Source: a virus
Virus record (IMG/VR): IMGVR_UViG_3300025940_000007
Coordinates: 1 to 64,000 of that record
DNA: 64,000 nt
Strand: one strand, 5' to 3'
Under the pieces are notes generated by a model that was not told the origin of the DNA, did no database searches, and saw nothing but the letters and a program-made list of their open reading frames with translations. This document shows, piece by piece, positions 12,432 to 55,795 of this stretch. A program made the position numbers and the translations under genes. Position 1 is the first letter of the stretch. The number at the start of each line of letters is the position of its first letter.

Positions 12432-12483
12432 GGAGGCTCGGCCACGCATCGAGTGAAGCCCTCTCCAGCGCTGCCGGGCCTCC
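12432..12483 (+). ncRNA. solitary TIGR-like unit U5
   Basis: GGAGGCTCGG-CCA-CGCATCGAG-TGAAGCCCT-CTCCAGCGC-TG-CCGGGCCTCC. Confidence 0.85.
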
Positions 12484-12512
12484 GCTTTTCTTTCAACCAA
12501 GGAGCAACAACG

Positions 12513-46518: not shown

Positions 46519-48279
46519 TTACGACGCGAGATTGAGTTGCGTGGCGAGATCGGAAACCATCGCATCGATCGCCTCACGGTAACGCGAAGACTCGATGGTG
46601 ATGTGCTTGAGGACCGGCGGCTCTTCGGCGCGGAAGCCCACGGTCAGATGCCCGAGCCGGATTTGCTCTGGCGAATTTCCCTCGGTCCTGAAGTTCACAT
46701 CGTAGCCGAGGATGTGCTGATCGGCTTCCAGATCGCGAAGGAAGAATTCCATCGTGTTGAGGATCGCCTGCACGGTGTGGCCGATGATGTTGAAGCGACC
46801 GAGGAAGAAGCGCAGCGCGCGCAGCATTCCCAGATGGATGTAGTCGCGACCTCTCATCACGTTGTACATCTGCCACAACGGGTCTTCGCCCGCATTGTCG
46901 GTCGAGATCAGCACGAAGCCGCCCGACGCGATCGCGAAATCGTCGCCCACCTCACCACGAATCAGCACGCCGATGTTCGCACCCAGCAACTCCTGCGCTT
47001 CGTTCGCGCTGTCGGTGAGATTGAAGCCGATCTCACGGTTCGGGCTGATGATGCCCTGCACCGCTTGGTTCGCCGCCGAGTGGAACGGGGCGCCGGTCTC
47101 GTGGTCGCGCCGCACCATGATTCCCGCCATGCGTGGCGCCAGCGGCCTGATCACGATATAGCTCGTGATCGGGTCCATCACGCGACAGCCGCCGCTGATC
47201 GGAATCAGGCGATGGCTCTGCATCGTCTCGCGCCAGTCTATATCGTTTTGAAACGACGCGCCCGAGCTCTCCACGATCATCATGCCGAGCAACTGGTTGC
47301 AGATCGACGTTGCTCCGGCGACAACCGGGTTGGCGCCAGCAACGATCGTCGCAGTGTACGCTGCGGTCGTGCCGGTTTCCTGCCACACGATGTCGAACGT
47401 CGCACCCGTGCCGCTGCCGCTGGTCTGGATCGCTACCAGTGGTTCATCCGGTGGCACCTCAGTGCCGACGATAAAGCCCGGCGTGGAGACGTTCGCCGTC
47501 AACACCTCACCGCCGGGACCGACCGTCACCACGGTGACGATCACCTGATGCTCAAGAACGACTTGCTCACCGACGCCGTAGCCGATGCCGCCAGATTCCA
47601 CCGTCGCCGATTGAGCCTGATTGCCCGGGGGAGGCACATCGATGGTCGGCGGCGTGTCGTACCACGCACCCGGCAGTTCGAGCTCGACCGCGCCAAGTTG
47701 ACCGTTGCTCAGACCATAAGCGTGGCCAGTCGCCTGTACCGCGTCAGGACCACCGCCGGAGAACGTCACCGGATACATGTGATCGGTGACATAGCCCGAA
47801 CCGGGCGCCGTGCGCTCGATATAGCCGACACCGTTGGCCATCTGCGAGGTGTAGCCCGGCGCCGTGAGGATGCGCGGCGTGAAGCCGAGCTTCTGCGACG
47901 CCTTGAGGAACGCCCACATGCCGGTGCCCGCGAGACTGTCGCCAGCGATCTTCGAGATCGTTTGCTGCAGCTTGATCGCCGGATCTGGATCGGTGCCTTC
48001 GGGCGTGCGCACGATGACGATGCGCGCAGCGAACTGCGTCTCTCCCAACTGATCGTTGATGCCGCGAACCGCATCCGCGAGATAGCCGAGATCGCCGAGC
48101 TTCTGCGTCTTCCGGCTGTCGTTCGAGTTGATGAACACCGGAGTGTCGTACGGAAACACCGACGCATCGGCGAGCGGCGCCGGGCCAACGATGCCGATGG
48201 TCGAAAGGTCAGCGGCCAGTACCGGACGCGCGCCTTCGTCTACTTTTCGAATTGAAATACCAAAGACCGGATCAGCCAT
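46519..48279 (-). CDS. tail sheath protein with internal insertion
   Basis: STIGIVG, PRILTAPG, PFHSAANQ, NVMRGRDYI, NSPEQIRLG; start MADPVFG after AGGAG. Confidence 0.92.
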   Translation of the reverse strand: MADPVFGISIRKVDEGARPVLAADLSTIGIVGPAPLADASVFPYDTPVFINSNDSRKTQKLGDLGYLADAVRGINDQLGETQFAARIVIVRTPEGTDPDPAIKLQQTISKIAGDSLAGTGMWAFLKASQKLGFTPRILTAPGYTSQMANGVGYIERTAPGSGYVTDHMYPVTFSGGGPDAVQATGHAYGLSNGQLGAVELELPGAWYDTPPTIDVPPPGNQAQSATVESGGIGYGVGEQVVLEHQVIVTVVTVGPGGEVLTANVSTPGFIVGTEVPPDEPLVAIQTSGSGTGATFDIVWQETGTTAAYTATIVAGANPVVAGATSICNQLLGMMIVESSGASFQNDIDWRETMQSHRLIPISGGCRVMDPITSYIVIRPLAPRMAGIMVRRDHETGAPFHSAANQAVQGIISPNREIGFNLTDSANEAQELLGANIGVLIRGEVGDDFAIASGGFVLISTDNAGEDPLWQMYNVMRGRDYIHLGMLRALRFFLGRFNIIGHTVQAILNTMEFFLRDLEADQHILGYDVNFRTEGNSPEQIRLGHLTVGFRAEEPPVLKHITIESSRYREAIDAMVSDLATQLNLAS

Positions 48280-48305
48280 TCTGATTTCTCCTGTTAAAGA
48301 TGTGG

Positions 48306-48599
48306 TTAGATCACGTGAGCGGGCGTCATGATTTCGAGAGCCTTGATCGTCAGCGCGTGCAGCCTCACCGACAGCACCAATATCGGCTCGGCGGTCGCTG
48401 ACCTCGCCGAGAAAATCCGAATCTCGCGGACATAGTCGCCCACGGTCTGGTCCTGCACGATCGGTGTCACCATCACCGAGCCAACCGGATTGCACTCCAT
48501 CGCTGTCGATAGCATTTGCAACGGTGATGGCGATGGGATCGCGTGCGCGGGCGGCACGGGTGTCGTCTGTCGTCCTTCGAAGAAGGCAATGTCAGCCAT
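48306..48599 (-). CDS. hypothetical virion-module protein
   Basis: AGGAG RBS. Confidence 0.6.
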   Translation of the reverse strand: MADIAFFEGRQTTPVPPAHAIPSPSPLQMLSTAMECNPVGSVMVTPIVQDQTVGDYVREIRIFSARSATAEPILVLSVRLHALTIKALEIMTPAHVI

Positions 48600-48612: not shown

Positions 48613-49827
48613 TTACTGCAAGGCTTTGATGACGTACGTCGAGATATTGGCCATGCGCCGAATCGAGACGATGAAGATGTGGCCGTTGGTGGTAGTCATT
48701 AGGTCCCCAGTGTTGGTGCCGACCGTGAAGCCACTCCATGCGATCGCACCAGCGCCAGCGCTATTGACAATCATCAGATCGACCGCGCAATCCACCGTCG
48801 GCGCCGTGACGGTGAAGGTGCCGACATTGCCGATGCTCTGGTAGTTGCCGTTGAACGGATTGATGGTGATGTTTCCTGCCGGAGACACGAACACGTTGAA
48901 GTTAAATCCACCGGAGATGGTCTGGCCGCCATTGAGAGAGAGCCTGCTTGCACCCATGCTGGCGACCGTGTCGTCAACATACTTCTTGGTCGATGCCATC
49001 AGCGGCTGTGATGGCGCGGCATACAGATACAGCGGCCCTGTCATCGACGCGCCCGAGGACGACATCGAGTCGCGCAGATACTCGTTCATGCGCGCGCGGG
49101 TCCAGTATGTGGTCGGAAATGAAGTGTCGTTCGAACCAGTGTCGGGATGTACGCCCTTCTGCACGCCCTCGAACACCGAGGTGCCATCCTTGCGGATGTA
49201 GTTGTACAAATCGAGACCGGCGCCTTCCAGATCGTTCGCGGCCTGCAAGATCTCTTGATGCATAATGACGATTTCGTTGTAGTCGGCGACTACGACATCG
49301 TGCATCGGCCCGACAGCATCATGGTAGAGCTTGGTGCTATCGGCCATGCCGGGCGTCGATGATACCACCCAATCATCGAACGGCCCCGGGTTGCCGTGCA
49401 GCGCGGTGATCGTCACCTCCAAGATGCCGAGTTTTTGGTCATAGGACATCGTGCGCGCGATCGCGTAGTCATCCGGAGAGTGCTCAATGATGAGATACGG
49501 TGAGGGCGTGAAGGTGTCGCGCTGCACGCCCTCCTCAACGGTGAAGGTCATGTAGCCCATCCCCAGCGTCATCAGGCCGGTGATCGGCGCCAACAAGAAA
49601 CCAAGTTGCGTCACCTCCAGAATGTCTTTGGTCGCCGGGATCAAGATCTCGTTCATGCGCAACAGCGCAGCGGCGCGAATATCCTCGTTGACGCCAGCGA
49701 GGAGATCCTGCGTCGATTCGAGATTCTGAAAGCGACCTTCGAGCGAGGGCAACAACCGCTTCATATAAGGAAGCAGTTGCGTGCCGGGTTTTAGTTCGAA
49801 CTCTTCATCCAGCCGCTTCAGCGCCAT
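48613..49827 (-). CDS. tail fibre-related protein
   Basis: MTGPL...ASTKKYVD fibre-like repeat; position in tail module. Confidence 0.65.
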   Translation of the reverse strand: MALKRLDEEFELKPGTQLLPYMKRLLPSLEGRFQNLESTQDLLAGVNEDIRAAALLRMNEILIPATKDILEVTQLGFLLAPITGLMTLGMGYMTFTVEEGVQRDTFTPSPYLIIEHSPDDYAIARTMSYDQKLGILEVTITALHGNPGPFDDWVVSSTPGMADSTKLYHDAVGPMHDVVVADYNEIVIMHQEILQAANDLEGAGLDLYNYIRKDGTSVFEGVQKGVHPDTGSNDTSFPTTYWTRARMNEYLRDSMSSSGASMTGPLYLYAAPSQPLMASTKKYVDDTVASMGASRLSLNGGQTISGGFNFNVFVSPAGNITINPFNGNYQSIGNVGTFTVTAPTVDCAVDLMIVNSAGAGAIAWSGFTVGTNTGDLMTTTNGHIFIVSIRRMANISTYVIKALQ

Positions 49828-49832
49828 GTGGT

Positions 49833-50333
49833 TTACGCCTTCTTCTTGGCCTTGCCTGTCGCTTCCGCTTGGCTCGGTGCCACGTCCGGATTCTGCGGCG
49901 TGTCGCCGATCTCCACCGCGTCAACGATGCAGGGCTGCACCTCCGGATCGAGGCACGTCTCTCCGGTCATCTGGTACGACTTCGCCGGAGACAGAACGCG
50001 GCCCGCGAACATGCACGCCTTGCCGAGGGTGACCTGATAGACCTTCCCGGCAACGAAGGTTGGGATGGCGCGATCGCTCTTCTTCCACTCCGGCGGCGAG
50101 TCTTCCGACGGTGACGCCGGACCGCCGATCTGGATCACGCGATCATCGATCCATTCTCCCTTTCGCACCTCGCGCCGCGAGCCCTTGCCGTTGGCTGGCG
50201 CGTTCGGCATTGGCCCCGACGTTCCCGACGTCGAGCCCATCGAGCCGGGATCGAGTGCCGCGCGCGCCTTCGCTAGCGCAGCCTCGTCCATCGGCATGTT
50301 AACGTTGCGTTGCGGAAATTCTTCTGTGGCCAT
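49833..50333 (-). CDS. hypothetical protein
   Basis: GGAG RBS; 166 aa. Confidence 0.65.
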   Translation of the reverse strand: MATEEFPQRNVNMPMDEAALAKARAALDPGSMGSTSGTSGPMPNAPANGKGSRREVRKGEWIDDRVIQIGGPASPSEDSPPEWKKSDRAIPTFVAGKVYQVTLGKACMFAGRVLSPAKSYQMTGETCLDPEVQPCIVDAVEIGDTPQNPDVAPSQAEATGKAKKKA

Positions 50334-50367
50334 TGTACAAGCTCCATGATTGTTTTAGATAGGGAAA

Positions 50368-50435
50368 GTGAGGGCGGGCCTTGGCCAAGAAGGTCATGAA
50401 ACCCATTCGACTGTTGTCTCTGGGCTCGCCCTCAC
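50368..50435 (+). ncRNA. solitary TIGR-like unit L1, antisense in the late operon
   Basis: GTGAGGGCGGGCC..GG-CCA-AGAAGGTCA-TGAAACCCA-TTCGACTGT-TG..GGCTCGCCCTCAC. Confidence 0.88.
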
Positions 50436-50438
50436 ACC

Positions 50439-52793
50439 TCAAGCAACAGCGACGTCGATGCGTTCGCCGACGAGATAACAGGCGTTCACGTTGTCCGTGG
50501 TGCCCTCCATGCGGATTTTGTACGCGGTGATCGCAGTGCCGCCGAGCGCTGCCAAATTCCACGTGCAGTGGCGCAGCAACACAGTCGGATCATCCGGATC
50601 GACTTCGTCCTCGATCAGTGATGGCGTCCGCACACTGGTGTAGCCCGCACCAGTCAATAGGCGCGGAATGAAGGTGTGGTACGGCGCACCACGCCACGAC
50701 TCTAGCCGGAAATCTCCGTAGACCGTCGTGACGGGTCCGGGCGTGGTCCGCGCGGTACTGATGTGGCGGAAGTCCGAGCGAGGCCGCGACGTCAGCGATC
50801 GCGAATTCGCCGCCACACCGAAGCCGGGCATTTCGTCGGTCGTGCCCACCAGTGTGATCCGGAATGGCAACAGCGGCGGCAGCGCAACGAGCGGGTTGGT
50901 GTCGTAGTAGCCGAGCGGCACCCACGCGCCGTTGACTTGCACCTCGAAATTGATCGTGGTGCCGGGCGGGCGCGTCGAGTCGAAGTTCAAATCGATCGCC
51001 GAGATACCGCCGTTCAATTCCAGCGACAGCAGTTGCGCGGTGCACTGCGTGGTGCGGAATTTCGCGAAGTAGAGCCGGAAAGAAAGATCCTTGGTGAGAT
51101 CGCCGAGCGCCCACGCTCCATCGGTGGAAGTGAACATCGAGCCTTGCGCGAACTTGTTGTTGTGCACCAACGCGACGAAATGATTGCCGGGCGTCTGTAG
51201 GACGAAGGCGTAACGCTGACCCTTCGCCAGATAGGTCGGCAGGAAGTCGAACTTGGTCGCGTTCGGTGACGGTCGCAGCAAGTCCGCAGGCTTGGTCGAG
51301 CGCGCAATCGTTCGCTCGAAATTCGGCGCACCGGCTTCGTTACATTCGCAGATCAGGCAGTGCACGTCGCCCGTTGCCGCGATGCGGGTGAAGAAGATAT
51401 CGACGCCAGTCAGCCAGCCGCCCTGTGAATTGAGATAGGTCTGCGAGATCACCGAGCCCGACAAACCATCGACCGTGATGACTTGCCGCCAGTAATACGA
51501 GTCCACGATTTCATCGACCCAGAACTGCACGAGCCGGAGCACCGTGTGGTTCGGGTTGTCCATCACGTCGAGGATCTGGAACGTCTCGGTGCCGCGCGTC
51601 AGGATGTTGCGGATCGGATCGTAGATCAGATCGGTGTTCGGCGTGTAGCCGCCGACAGCCGCAGGAGGCATACCGACGTTCGTTCCGTAGTCGTGACCGG
51701 CTGGCGCGAACCACCAGACGCCGTTCGAGCAGACCACCATCGGCGTGCCCCAACGAATGCGCGTTCTGGTCTTGGCGCAGAGCTCCCACGAGATCGTTTG
51801 ATACTGATACTGGGAGATCGACAGTTCGGAATCCTTGCCGAGCACCTCGATGCGCACCACTTGGTCGTACACAGGCAGAACGAAGTTGGCCTGATTGATC
51901 ACCGCCGGGTCCATCGGGTTCAACAGCCCAAACTGCGCCTCGCGTTCGGCGGCGTTCGGGAAGCGAATACCCTCCTCGCACTTAGCGAGGTAATCCACGT
52001 TCTGCAGATCGGACTCGTCCGTGGTTAGGAAGTGATCGGCGCCCCACATCGAATAGGTGTCAGGCAGGCCAACCTTTTCCTTCACGCGCGCGACGTCGGT
52101 TGCGATCTTCAGCACGAACTTCATGCCAGCGGTGCCGTTCAAGCGCACAGCCAGCGCGGCCATGTCGGTCGCCAGTGTGTCGAGCCGTGACGCAGTCTGC
52201 GCACGCCATGCATCCATCTCGTTCAAGCGGTCATCGAGATCAGCAAGGTTCGGCGCCCGGTTCTCGTTCACCATCTGGATCGAGATGATGCCGGTGCTGT
52301 CGAGCAAGATCCAAGCAACCGCCAGCGTGTTCGATGCCACGCTCGGATGCTGCGGGTCCGGACCTTCGGCGCCGATCACGGTGCTGATGTTGGCCCAGCG
52401 ACGGCTTTCGGTGGAGACCACACGCGCGACGGTGGCACGCGTCACCGGATCAGTCAGGAAGGTTCTCGGCTCGGTGTCGGTCTCGATCTCTTGGCCCCAG
52501 ACCACCACGCCGACATATCGACGCGTCACCACCGGGAGCACGCCGAGCAAGTCGAGAGAGGCGCCGCCCTCGCTGTCGTTATAGAACACCAAGCCGTTAT
52601 GGTAGAGCCGCCCGTTGCCCACGGTGACCACCGCTGGCGCCGTCTGCACCGTGGTGAAGCCCGTGTACGCCATGCTCGGGATCAAGGTATCCACAACGAC
52701 ATGGTCGAAAGATGCACGCGGGAAGAGGCCGAAGTTATTGAAGTCTTCGACAGTCACCTTCTGCCAGTCTTGGATGTTTACCTTGCGTTCCAT
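50439..52793 (-). CDS. large baseplate/tail structural protein
   Basis: 784 aa, beta-rich; downstream of the gpI-like gene. Confidence 0.75.
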   Translation of the reverse strand: MERKVNIQDWQKVTVEDFNNFGLFPRASFDHVVVDTLIPSMAYTGFTTVQTAPAVVTVGNGRLYHNGLVFYNDSEGGASLDLLGVLPVVTRRYVGVVVWGQEIETDTEPRTFLTDPVTRATVARVVSTESRRWANISTVIGAEGPDPQHPSVASNTLAVAWILLDSTGIISIQMVNENRAPNLADLDDRLNEMDAWRAQTASRLDTLATDMAALAVRLNGTAGMKFVLKIATDVARVKEKVGLPDTYSMWGADHFLTTDESDLQNVDYLAKCEEGIRFPNAAEREAQFGLLNPMDPAVINQANFVLPVYDQVVRIEVLGKDSELSISQYQYQTISWELCAKTRTRIRWGTPMVVCSNGVWWFAPAGHDYGTNVGMPPAAVGGYTPNTDLIYDPIRNILTRGTETFQILDVMDNPNHTVLRLVQFWVDEIVDSYYWRQVITVDGLSGSVISQTYLNSQGGWLTGVDIFFTRIAATGDVHCLICECNEAGAPNFERTIARSTKPADLLRPSPNATKFDFLPTYLAKGQRYAFVLQTPGNHFVALVHNNKFAQGSMFTSTDGAWALGDLTKDLSFRLYFAKFRTTQCTAQLLSLELNGGISAIDLNFDSTRPPGTTINFEVQVNGAWVPLGYYDTNPLVALPPLLPFRITLVGTTDEMPGFGVAANSRSLTSRPRSDFRHISTARTTPGPVTTVYGDFRLESWRGAPYHTFIPRLLTGAGYTSVRTPSLIEDEVDPDDPTVLLRHCTWNLAALGGTAITAYKIRMEGTTDNVNACYLVGERIDVAVA

Positions 52794-54270: not shown

Positions 54271-55226
54271 AGGGCACGTCCAGCATTGCGCACGGTGACT
54301 TGCGTGACCTTGATGACCCAATCCATCGCCACAAACACGTCGTCTTCAGGCAAGAGGATATCGACGTGATGCACGCCGGTCAGACGACACGCGGCATGGA
54401 TCGCGGTGTGGGTGTGATCGTGGCCTAACCAGTACTGATCGTTGACCAGCGTCGCGAGGTTGTTGACGATCTGCTTCATCGTCGTGTCGGCGTTGGCGCC
54501 GGGATAGAACCAGATGTCGAGCTTGTACTCGATCTCGCGGATCTTCGGTGGATTGACCGAGATCACGTCGGTGAGCCCCTGCCGTGACAGCGATTGAATG
54601 TACGCGCGGATCGTCACCAACTCCTGATCGGTCGGCTTCGGATCGGCGGGCGGCTCTTTCAGACACGTGATCAGAATTGTCGGGTAGTAGTCATGTTGAA
54701 CACTGCGGATCGCGGTGACATCGCGCAGGCTCGGCATCGCGGTTAGCGCCCAGAATTCGTACGCCTCCGCCGTGCCGTGCGGGCTCAGCGTGTTCGGCGA
54801 GAGCCAGATCCGGCGCCGGTAGCGATCGTCGCTTTCGTTCGGCAGGCGAGGCACGCCGCCGGGATAGCGCGATGCAATGGCGTCGAGATCGGTGCCGATC
54901 GCATAGGCCAGCGTGACCGAGCGCGCCGCCTGATTGACGCGGTCGCGCAACATCAACTCGAAATACGAGCAGGCCTCTTGGTTGATCTTGATCGGATCGA
55001 ACTCAAGGTTCTCGACGTCATACTGCGCCGCCGTTGGCGGATCGTAATATGCCCACAGTTGCTTCAGCCGCCCCATCCGCTCGGAGAGGATCGCCTCGAC
55101 GTCGATCTTCTCCAGCACGATCATCGGCTGCAGATTCGCAGGCAGGATGACCGAGATGCGATCGGTCAGCCGGTCAGCCAGCGCCTGCCCTGCCTGCGAG
55201 ATGTTGCCGAAACTGGTGTCGCTCAT
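54267..55226 (-). CDS. baseplate J-like protein
   Basis: RVNQAARSVTLAYAIGTDLDAI; ESDDRYRRRI; GTAEAYEFWAL. Confidence 0.92.
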   Translation of the reverse strand: MSDTSFGNISQAGQALADRLTDRISVILPANLQPMIVLEKIDVEAILSERMGRLKQLWAYYDPPTAAQYDVENLEFDPIKINQEACSYFELMLRDRVNQAARSVTLAYAIGTDLDAIASRYPGGVPRLPNESDDRYRRRIWLSPNTLSPHGTAEAYEFWALTAMPSLRDVTAIRSVQHDYYPTILITCLKEPPADPKPTDQELVTIRAYIQSLSRQGLTDVISVNPPKIREIEYKLDIWFYPGANADTTMKQIVNNLATLVNDQYWLGHDHTHTAIHAACRLTGVHHVDILLPEDDVFVAMDWVIKVTQVTVRNAGRAL

Positions 55227-55795
55227 AGTGCGCTCCCGGGCGGGATGTTAGGTGTGGTGCCGATGCCGCCGGGAGGTGCGCCAGCGATGTAACCCGCTTG
55301 GCGTTCCCAGATGTTATAGCCGCGCGAGACCAGACCAACTGCGCGCCTGACTTGCGGGTCGTTGTTGCCGAGGTGGCCGCGTGGTCGGTAGACGCCTTCC
55401 ATCGCCGTGGTGAGCTTGCCAGTGCGGAGCTCCTCCGGCGACGTCAGCATTGAGCCATCACCACGCACGCCCGTGCGCACGCGCTGAATGCGGTAGTTCG
55501 GTTCGTGCAGATCGAGCGCGGTGGCGATCGCCCAATAAAATCTGCAGATCGTCGTCTCGGTCGCGTTCTCGCCGATCAGATGCGGCACGTAGCAACCGAC
55601 CCAGCGCCGCAGCACGCGCTCGTGATACTTCGTGGAGAAGATCAGGAGCATCGATTGGATGACGTGATCCCACCCGGTGAGAACCTTCCCGGTATATCGA
55701 TCCATACCGATGCGCACGGGATTGAGGACGATGCGGCCAAATCTGAGATCCGGCCACATGTCGAGCGTTGGATCGTAGACGTAATCCCCCGCCAT
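55223..55795 (-). CDS. gp25/gpW-like baseplate wedge protein
   Basis: GMDRYTGK..HVIQS..IFST...RVLRR..G..VP.LI..EP. Confidence 0.88.
   Translation of the reverse strand: MAGDYVYDPTLDMWPDLRFGRIVLNPVRIGMDRYTGKVLTGWDHVIQSMLLIFSTKYHERVLRRWVGCYVPHLIGENATETTICRFYWAIATALDLHEPNYRIQRVRTGVRGDGSMLTSPEELRTGKLTTAMEGVYRPRGHLGNNDPQVRRAVGLVSRGYNIWERQAGYIAGAPPGGIGTTPNIPPGSAL

Follow-up and report, generated by a model that had tools for sequence, protein, structure and literature searches.

A solitary two-spacer guide cassette in the tail operon of a soil phage probably targets an allele of related phages

The stretch of DNA analysed here (hereafter, the window) covers the initial 64 kb of a 76.7-kb record of an uncultured soil phage, IMGVR_UViG_3300025940_000007, which has 60.6% GC, a completeness of ~90% and tail genes of the myovirus type. 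Between two minus-strand tail genes, a gap of 105 nt (50334-50438) holds a hairpin that reads on the plus strand, named L1 (50368-50435), in agreement with a preliminary description that had placed a plus-strand unit in a ~100-bp gap between minus-strand genes. L1 abuts the stop codon (i.e., the 3' end) of a gene for a 784-aa protein (50439-52793, minus strand; stop codon tca at 50439-50441), which matched phrog_17470 and had no Pfam match. Because this gene comes after a P2 gpI-like baseplate gene, its product is likely to be a tail fibre protein or a protein of the distal baseplate. On the other side of the gap lies a minus-strand gene for a 166-aa protein, whose ATG (cat on the plus strand) is at 50331-50333. 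The L1 region had no blastn match among 50,697 phage records, and the window had no Rfam match at gathering thresholds and no tRNA or tmRNA called by ARAGORN.

We compared this junction across 61 IMG/VR loci that carry relatives of the 784-aa protein (72-100% identical, except one distant relative at 38%). At all of the ~45 loci that reach the 3' end of the gene, the stop codon is followed by 15-30 nt with a ribosome-binding site and then an ATG, and none has a hairpin. The search for empty alleles that had been proposed as a check thus found the cassette missing from ~45 of ~45 relatives. The ancestral TAA-AAAC is still present at 50350-50357, from which we take the inserted DNA to be 50358-50441, a plus-strand segment of 84 nt made up of a 10-nt 5' flank, the hairpin and a 3' tail, ACCTCA; this insert supplies a new TGA stop to the 784-aa gene. 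Scans for the L-type stem pattern returned a single unrelated palindrome from IMG/VR and nothing from the JGI metagenomes, where a pattern scan for the L1 spacer pair with the linker left free also found nothing. Across the ~45 relatives and these stem scans, L1 was private to one genome. Contigs identical to the window span L1 in two independent rhizosphere metagenomes (X6 and X9), so L1 is not an assembly artefact, and no empty L1 allele was found among metagenome contigs of at least 85% similarity. By sequence comparison, then, L1 was inserted recently, between two tail genes that are closely packed.

The outer stem of L1 pairs 11 nt, GTGAGGGCGGG (50368-50378), with CTCGCCCTCAC (50425-50435), lengthens to 13 bp via CC/GG and closes a loop of 46-50 nt. 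The exact stem 11-mer has only one other copy in the window, at 58562 with its partner at 58625, and this second hairpin is L2 (below); a copy of the L1 arm with one mismatch occurs at 49500, where the partner arm is absent. The claim that the long outer stem is confined to L1 and L2 therefore stands. One pair in the stem is G-T on the plus strand and would be an A-C mismatch if read on the minus strand; it is valid on the plus strand only, which supports a guide that is read from that strand. The plus strand folds at -39.0 kcal/mol (z -2.07 relative to shuffles), and the minus strand at -35.6 kcal/mol (z -1.26), which is not better than shuffles.

Within the loop lies a two-fold core (50385-50416, plus strand) of the form CCA-N9-TG-AAAC-CCA-N9-TG. 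Its elements are box C (CCA, 50385-87), spacer A (AGAAGGTCA, 50388-96), box D (TG, 50397-98), the linker AAAC (50399-402), box C' (CCA, 50403-05), spacer B (TTCGACTGT, 50406-14) and box D' (TG, 50415-16). The boxes are those of TIGR-Tas systems, which were described, 'stem-loop arrays' included, by Faure et al. 2025 (PMC12045711). In the TasR structure, UG (box D) opens each repeat and CCA (box C) closes it, and the two spacers, A and B, pair with different strands of the DNA. Stem-loop tigRNAs have been reported upstream of, downstream of and inside tas genes, with extended stems and with a CUU motif at the stem bases that marks the processing site, and TasA has been described as an RNA-guided transcriptional repressor (Xu et al. 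2026, bioRxiv 10.64898/2026.09.09.750476). The L1 core fits the strict pattern CC-N10-[TC]G-N4-CC-N10-[TC]G that is common to the other tigRNA units of this genome (hereafter, U units), and its segment TGAAACCCAT is identical to the U units at 32679 and 10491.

L2 (58562-58635, plus strand) also lies in a gap between two minus-strand genes. Its inserted DNA is 104 nt long (58538-58641, plus strand), and the genes that flank it overlap by ATGA in three of the near-complete relatives that we collected (G001-G003) and in 8 of 9 further relatives. The L2 core (58586-58617, plus strand) reads CCT CATCCATCC TG AAGC CCA TGTAGTCTG TG, with spacer A at 58589-97 and spacer B at 58607-15. L1 and L2 have in common TTGGCC, TGAA[AG]CCCAT and the tail AC[CT]TCA, in which TCA is in each case the stop codon of the upstream minus-strand gene, and each lies exactly between that stop codon and the ribosome-binding site of the next gene. 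Boxes, spacer lengths and stem are intact in both, and the spacers are wholly different. The transcribed tails would be ACCUCA for L1, without the CUU motif, and ACUUCA for L2; most U units have ACCCUUU. At the sequence level, the units of this phage agree in all features with the published account of stem-loop tigRNAs, L1 and L2 being of the extended-stem form. L2 is a sister cassette of L1, and the U units share its core on the plus strand.

A promoter scanner called none for L1. By eye, a candidate weak promoter is present on the plus strand at 50333-50361 (TTGTAC-N17-TAGATA), ending 6 nt before the hairpin. The scanner did call a promoter-like site for L2 (ATGACA-N17-TATGGT), which likewise ends 6 nt before its hairpin, so that the L1 candidate has the same layout. 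At 58520-58540, the gene downstream of L2 starts MSVIRM with the codons TCT and AGA, for which relatives use AGC and CGC; read on the plus strand, these first codons make the ATGACA hexamer of the L2 promoter-like site.

A covariance model and a census of hairpins place the other ~38 tigRNA units at 5607-36736, all on the plus strand, either singly in gaps between early and middle genes of the plus strand or in two arrays (25928-26483 and 35991-36736). In the census, 39 hairpins had a loop of exactly 30 nt, as against ~5 for any other loop length. The stems of the family are perfect and 7-12 bp long, and the aligned units follow the scheme stem-CC(A)-N9-TG-N4-CC(A)-N9-TG-stem, often with ACCCUUU behind it. 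Stem sequence varies among units and pairing is kept: in an alignment of 32 units (A2), 90% of stem cells were paired and 9 of 10 stem pairs showed compensatory (double) changes. The covariance model found ~38 copies, on the plus strand only. Built from the short units, it scored L1 (17.1 bits, E 0.24) and L2 (16.0 bits) weakly, owing to the greater length of their arms. Two further viral contigs, G006 and G007, carry 32-36 units each, with a tasA homologue beside the arrays; the five near-complete relatives (G001-G005) have neither a TasA homologue nor units.

Several further features of the unit family can be recorded here. Only 1 of the 320 stem cells in the alignment of 32 units is a G-U pair, and the stems are essentially perfect DNA palindromes. 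So near an absence of G-U, despite 9 of 10 covarying pairs, is unusual for an RNA helix, and the palindromic stems may tell something of how units are generated. In the arrays at 35991-36736 and 25928-26483, a unit with a CGGTCGC-type stem stands directly before one with a GAGCCC(C)GGC-type stem, with a period of ~105 nt, and these alternating arrays of two stem types occupy a gene-free stretch of 790 nt. A unit of G006 (766-823) and one in the window (12433-12490), from phages with ~60% protein identity, sit at the same gene junction and have nearly the same stem and entirely different spacers, a sequence comparison that suggests spacer turnover in place.

The guide units accompany a candidate effector gene, tasA (25113-25985, plus strand), whose product is a nuclease-less protein of the Nop/IS110-C type and whose reading frame is open from 25014. 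The open reading frame 25014-25985 matched Pfam PF02371 (IS110-family C-terminal domain; 22.1 bits, cut-off 21.3), phrog_4285 and, by sequence, PDB 9mty (9mty_A). An AlphaFold (AF2) model of TasA, made with 36 homologues, had a mean pLDDT of 91; the 290-aa model is all-helical, with a long coiled coil and a globular Nop domain. In a Foldseek search of the PDB, the top 10 matches were all TasH/TasR-tigRNA complexes (probability 1.0), and the next was the bridge-RNA recombinase IS621. Neither the Pfam matches nor the fold of the model included a nuclease (RuvC/HNH). Domain matches and predicted fold together indicate that the phage encodes a nuclease-less TasA.

Two guide units lie within the tasA reading frame. 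One (25094-25141) holds the probable tasA start codon (25113) in its loop motif, ATGAAATCC, and the other (25928-25977) falls in the last tasA codons; the Lys-rich residues 1-33 of the frame from 25014 may be untranslated. Just downstream of the TIGR-tasA region are genes for a PDDEXK-type exonuclease (DUF3799, 28486-29415) and RecT (31172-32191), which are relevant to any recombination-based spread of guide cassettes.

We next consider what the L1 spacers match. One geometry alone gave a clear signal against the collected relatives. In it, spacer B comes first and the reverse complement of spacer A second, and the final base of each spacer addresses one shared central base pair, which yields a site of 17 bp. 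For L1 this spells TTCGACTGTGACCTTCT, and other spacer arrangements gave no perfect site in relatives. The site lies in the relatives' orthologues of the 784-aa gene, always at codons 11-16 (QKVTVE). Among 56 relatives that include the start of this gene, two (L029 and L045) matched at 17/17 positions, ten at 16/17, 21 at 15/17, 15 at 14/17 and six at 13/17 or worse; the surrounding peptide, DWQKVTVEDF, is kept in 53 of the 56. The phage's own copy, TTCGACAGTCACCTTCT (52746-52762, codons Q11-E16), matches at 15/17, and both of its mismatches are silent and in third codon positions (GTG for GTC, ACT for ACA). A distance of two mismatches does not exceed the median among relatives. Related phages occur in the same samples; in run X6, for example, a second contig has the base of the commoner ACG allele, C, at 52752.

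These results bear on several points in the preliminary description. It had proposed reading the relatives at the KVTVE codons, and doing so gave the exact site in two relatives and 16/17 in ten, next to two silent differences in the carrier. A near-target in the first 50 nt of the neighbouring gene was located correctly (nucleotides 32-48, 15/17); L1 itself, however, adjoins the 3' end of that gene, and the site is 2.3 kb away. An additional match of the unit U18 to the same gene (52446-52463, 15/18) does exist, but is at chance level (ten hits with three mismatches among 39 units, versus ~6 per control set of mispaired spacers) and vanishes under the 17-bp geometry that true hits follow. The broader suggestion of a guide gene settled beside its target is upheld by the full tigRNA core, the genome-encoded TasA and the site that matches kin. 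Association between the cassette and the target allele rests on a single carrier genome (n = 1).

The L1 target spans 17 bp, one base fewer than the uninterrupted 18 bp seen in the solved complex of TasR. Under its order, the spacers each pair with the 3' half of the strand concerned, in agreement with the strand description in the SpTasH paper. With the contiguous 18-bp geometry, no unit had a site with two or fewer mismatches in its own genome, and 18-bp targets in either order gave matches with three or four mismatches there at the level of mispaired-spacer controls.

The pattern seen at L1 recurs at L2 and three other solitary units. For L2, the own copy of the target (58683-58699, codons IHPDY of the adjacent 137-aa head-tail gene) matches at 13/17 with all four mismatches silent, and the site has 1-2 mismatches in relatives. 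The exact L2 site had four matches in IMG/VR, fewer than a rough chance estimate, and none of them was in the homologous gene. Unit 8897 is matched perfectly within the AAA-ATPase gene of G001, and its own orthologous site, 1.4 kb away, has three silent differences. Unit 7986 has one mismatch to G001 and three third-position mismatches to its own neighbouring gene. Unit 13930 matches its own neighbouring gene at 15/17 with both mismatches silent; it has no perfect site in a relative, and the relatives of that gene are too diverged to show one. Unit 25937 (25928-25977) has perfect sites in G001 and G004, two in each. Over five solitary guides compared with their own sites, all 14 of 14 mismatches fell on third codon positions, and the guides lay 0.05-2.4 kb from their own orthologue of the site. 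No unit had a perfect site in its own genome.

Shuffling within spacers provided a control for these matches. Three units (L1, 8897 and 25937) have perfect sites in relatives, a number reached in 0 of 20,000 shuffles; a single perfect unit was obtained in 1.5% of shuffles, and two such units just once. When the collected relatives were searched with the guides of G006 and G007, only one-mismatch matches resulted, at the control level.

Two units show multiple sites. The site of unit 25928-25977, which encodes WDGEKW, occurs twice each in G001 and G004, either perfect or with only the central base switched, the switch being between the readings of the two spacers; the unit's own paralogous sites, at 67292 and 69685 of the full record, have two mismatches each. 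For unit 12433-12490, a contiguous site of 18 bp (not 17 bp) is perfect four times in relatives (G001 48149-48400 and G003 54605-55303), in small genes where it encodes a repeated RIEALE helix motif. Either genuine targeting of several sites or a common GC-rich codon string could explain these matches.

Taken together, we consider it probable that L1 is a solitary two-spacer stem-loop tigRNA gene of the phage's own TIGR-TasA system, aimed at the allele of its kin. L1 would be transcribed from the plus strand, antisense to the late operon, by its own weak promoter; a host RNase would trim the RNA, which a dimer of TasA would take up. This complex would then unwind DNA and bind the kin allele. 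Because TasA has no nuclease, we propose that it would obstruct transcription in a relative that is co-infecting or already resident, and perhaps also hinder that relative's replication or packaging. The carrier genome would be protected by its two silent changes. Placed beside the immune allele, the guide would stay paired with it in phage recombination; this linkage would prevent recombinants from targeting themselves, and guide and allele could spread together. Against an effect on kin, tail proteins are shared in trans in a mixed infection, and so repressing a rival's tail gene alone is not obviously harmful to the rival.

A more far-reaching and decidedly tentative proposal is that solitary tigRNA cassettes are RNA-only drive elements that sit beside silently recoded immune alleles. 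TasA would be guided against the sensitive allele of a co-infecting relative, the stalled or blocked locus of the rival would be repaired or replaced by recombination (the phage has RecT and a PDDEXK nuclease), and the immune allele and the linked guide would spread together. If true, this would amount to an RNA-guided counterpart of intronless homing and would offer a way for new TIGR units to form and spread.

Three other explanations were weighed. L1 might be an inert relic or selfish insertion, i.e., a guide-like hairpin in the wrong orientation that is never expressed, with the match reflecting the source of the spacers followed by neutral silent drift. It is antisense to its operon, has no convincing promoter and is private to one genome, and the distance of the own allele is ordinary among relatives, all of which this explanation would accommodate. 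However, boxes, spacer lengths and stem have stayed intact in L1 and L2 despite wholly different spacers, a promoter-like site was called for L2 at a suitable distance, and the split, strand-swapped halves of the match are what targeting needs and not what a simple duplication would yield. We therefore regard an inert element as unlikely.

Alternatively, L1 might guide TasA to the phage's own tail gene despite the two mismatches, timing or damping the late operon. Such self-regulation would fit the position of the best own-genome site at the 5' end of the adjacent late gene, the repression of transcription by TasA proteins and the partial tolerance of TasR for mismatches near spacer edges. It is harder to reconcile with perfect and one-mismatch sites that are found in relatives and not in the own genome, with the four mismatches in the own site of L2, with the lack of a perfect own-genome site for any unit and with the finding that single mismatches already alter TasH and TasR activity, and we think it quite unlikely. 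That the hairpin instead serves the minus-strand late transcript as an attenuator, processing site or stabiliser is very improbable: the stem does form on the minus strand and both L1 and L2 lie precisely between a stop codon and the next ribosome-binding site, but no U-tract or terminator was called on either strand of 50334-50438, the minus-strand fold does not beat shuffles, relatives manage without the hairpin and the conserved loop motifs are oriented for the plus strand.

Some element classes were set aside altogether. An intercistronic terminator, RNase site, REP/MITE, integron attC site and tRNA-like minihelix were considered and then abandoned when the two-fold core with its CCA/UG boxes and the Tas protein came to light. 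An intrinsic terminator was rejected on the same lack of a call in the gap and on the loop of 46-50 nt, and an IS110 bridge-RNA transposon because only the C-terminal domain matched and the TasA model has no RuvC fold.

The TIGR-Tas system itself is already known. In the 2025 and 2026 TIGR-Tas papers (PMC12045711; 10.64898/2026.09.09.750476), natural spacer targets could not yet be determined, and the role of nuclease-less TasA and the origin of new units were left unexplained. Reading L1 as a tigRNA gene aimed at kin, this phage gives a statistically supported natural target, in that its guides spell conserved coding sites of its kin and its own copies are recoded. It also offers clues to the other two questions: units can insert singly, far from tas and beside the gene that they match; L1 and L2 keep their stem with unrelated spacers, and the orthologous unit of a related phage has the stem and position in common but different spacers. 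Competition among kin by RNA-guided DNA binding would be testable with two short sites that differ at two silent positions. The literature that we searched described no natural target for stem-loop TIGR-TasA guides, no silent recoding of a carrier's own copy and no solitary cassettes antisense in a late operon beside the matched gene.

Among known systems, IS110/IS621 elements resemble this one in their homologous RNA-binding domain (PF02371, with IS621 as the next-best fold) and in bipartite guides carried in RNA loops. They differ in that the phage system has no DEDD/RuvC domain, donor-binding loop or element ends, and L1 is a guide unit and not a transposon RNA. A second parallel is with the free-standing homing endonuclease genes of T-even phages, which are known for intronless homing and marker exclusion. 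Like L1, these are small intergenic insertions; their product acts on the cognate locus of kin, sequence differences make the carrier allele immune, and element and allele are linked. In contrast to them, L1 encodes only an RNA guide, its effector is encoded elsewhere and is nuclease-less, and copying to the rival is a proposal.

The dual-repeat systems TIGR-TasR and TIGR-TasH (TaTasR 9MTY, SpTasH 9W04) have the same CCA...UG boxes, 9-nt spacers and A-rich linker and gave the best fold matches to the phage's TasA model. Those systems have fixed 36-nt units in regular arrays, a RuvC or HNH nuclease and self-processing, whereas in the phage stems replace the edge repeats and TasA has no nuclease. 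The stem-loop TIGR-TasA systems (PlTasA, BlTasA, MbTasA) resemble that of the phage in several respects: their Tas protein has a Nop domain and no nuclease, their hairpin units carry two short spacers, each flanked by a box C and a box D, their stems are variable yet palindromic, and units lie upstream of, downstream of and inside tas. They also share tandem-spacer targeting of opposite strands, as the L1 spacers match adjacent halves of one site. Their arrays lie beside tas, whereas L1 is single, 24 kb from tasA and antisense in a late structural operon. L1 further differs in its extended stem, in the missing CUU motif at the stem base, in its 17-bp site with a shared central base pair and in having a natural target that can be identified, the orthologue of its kin, with its own copy silently recoded. 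With its CCA/UG boxes, palindromic varying stem, opposite-strand spacers and Tas protein, L1 fits the description of a stem-loop TIGR-Tas unit.
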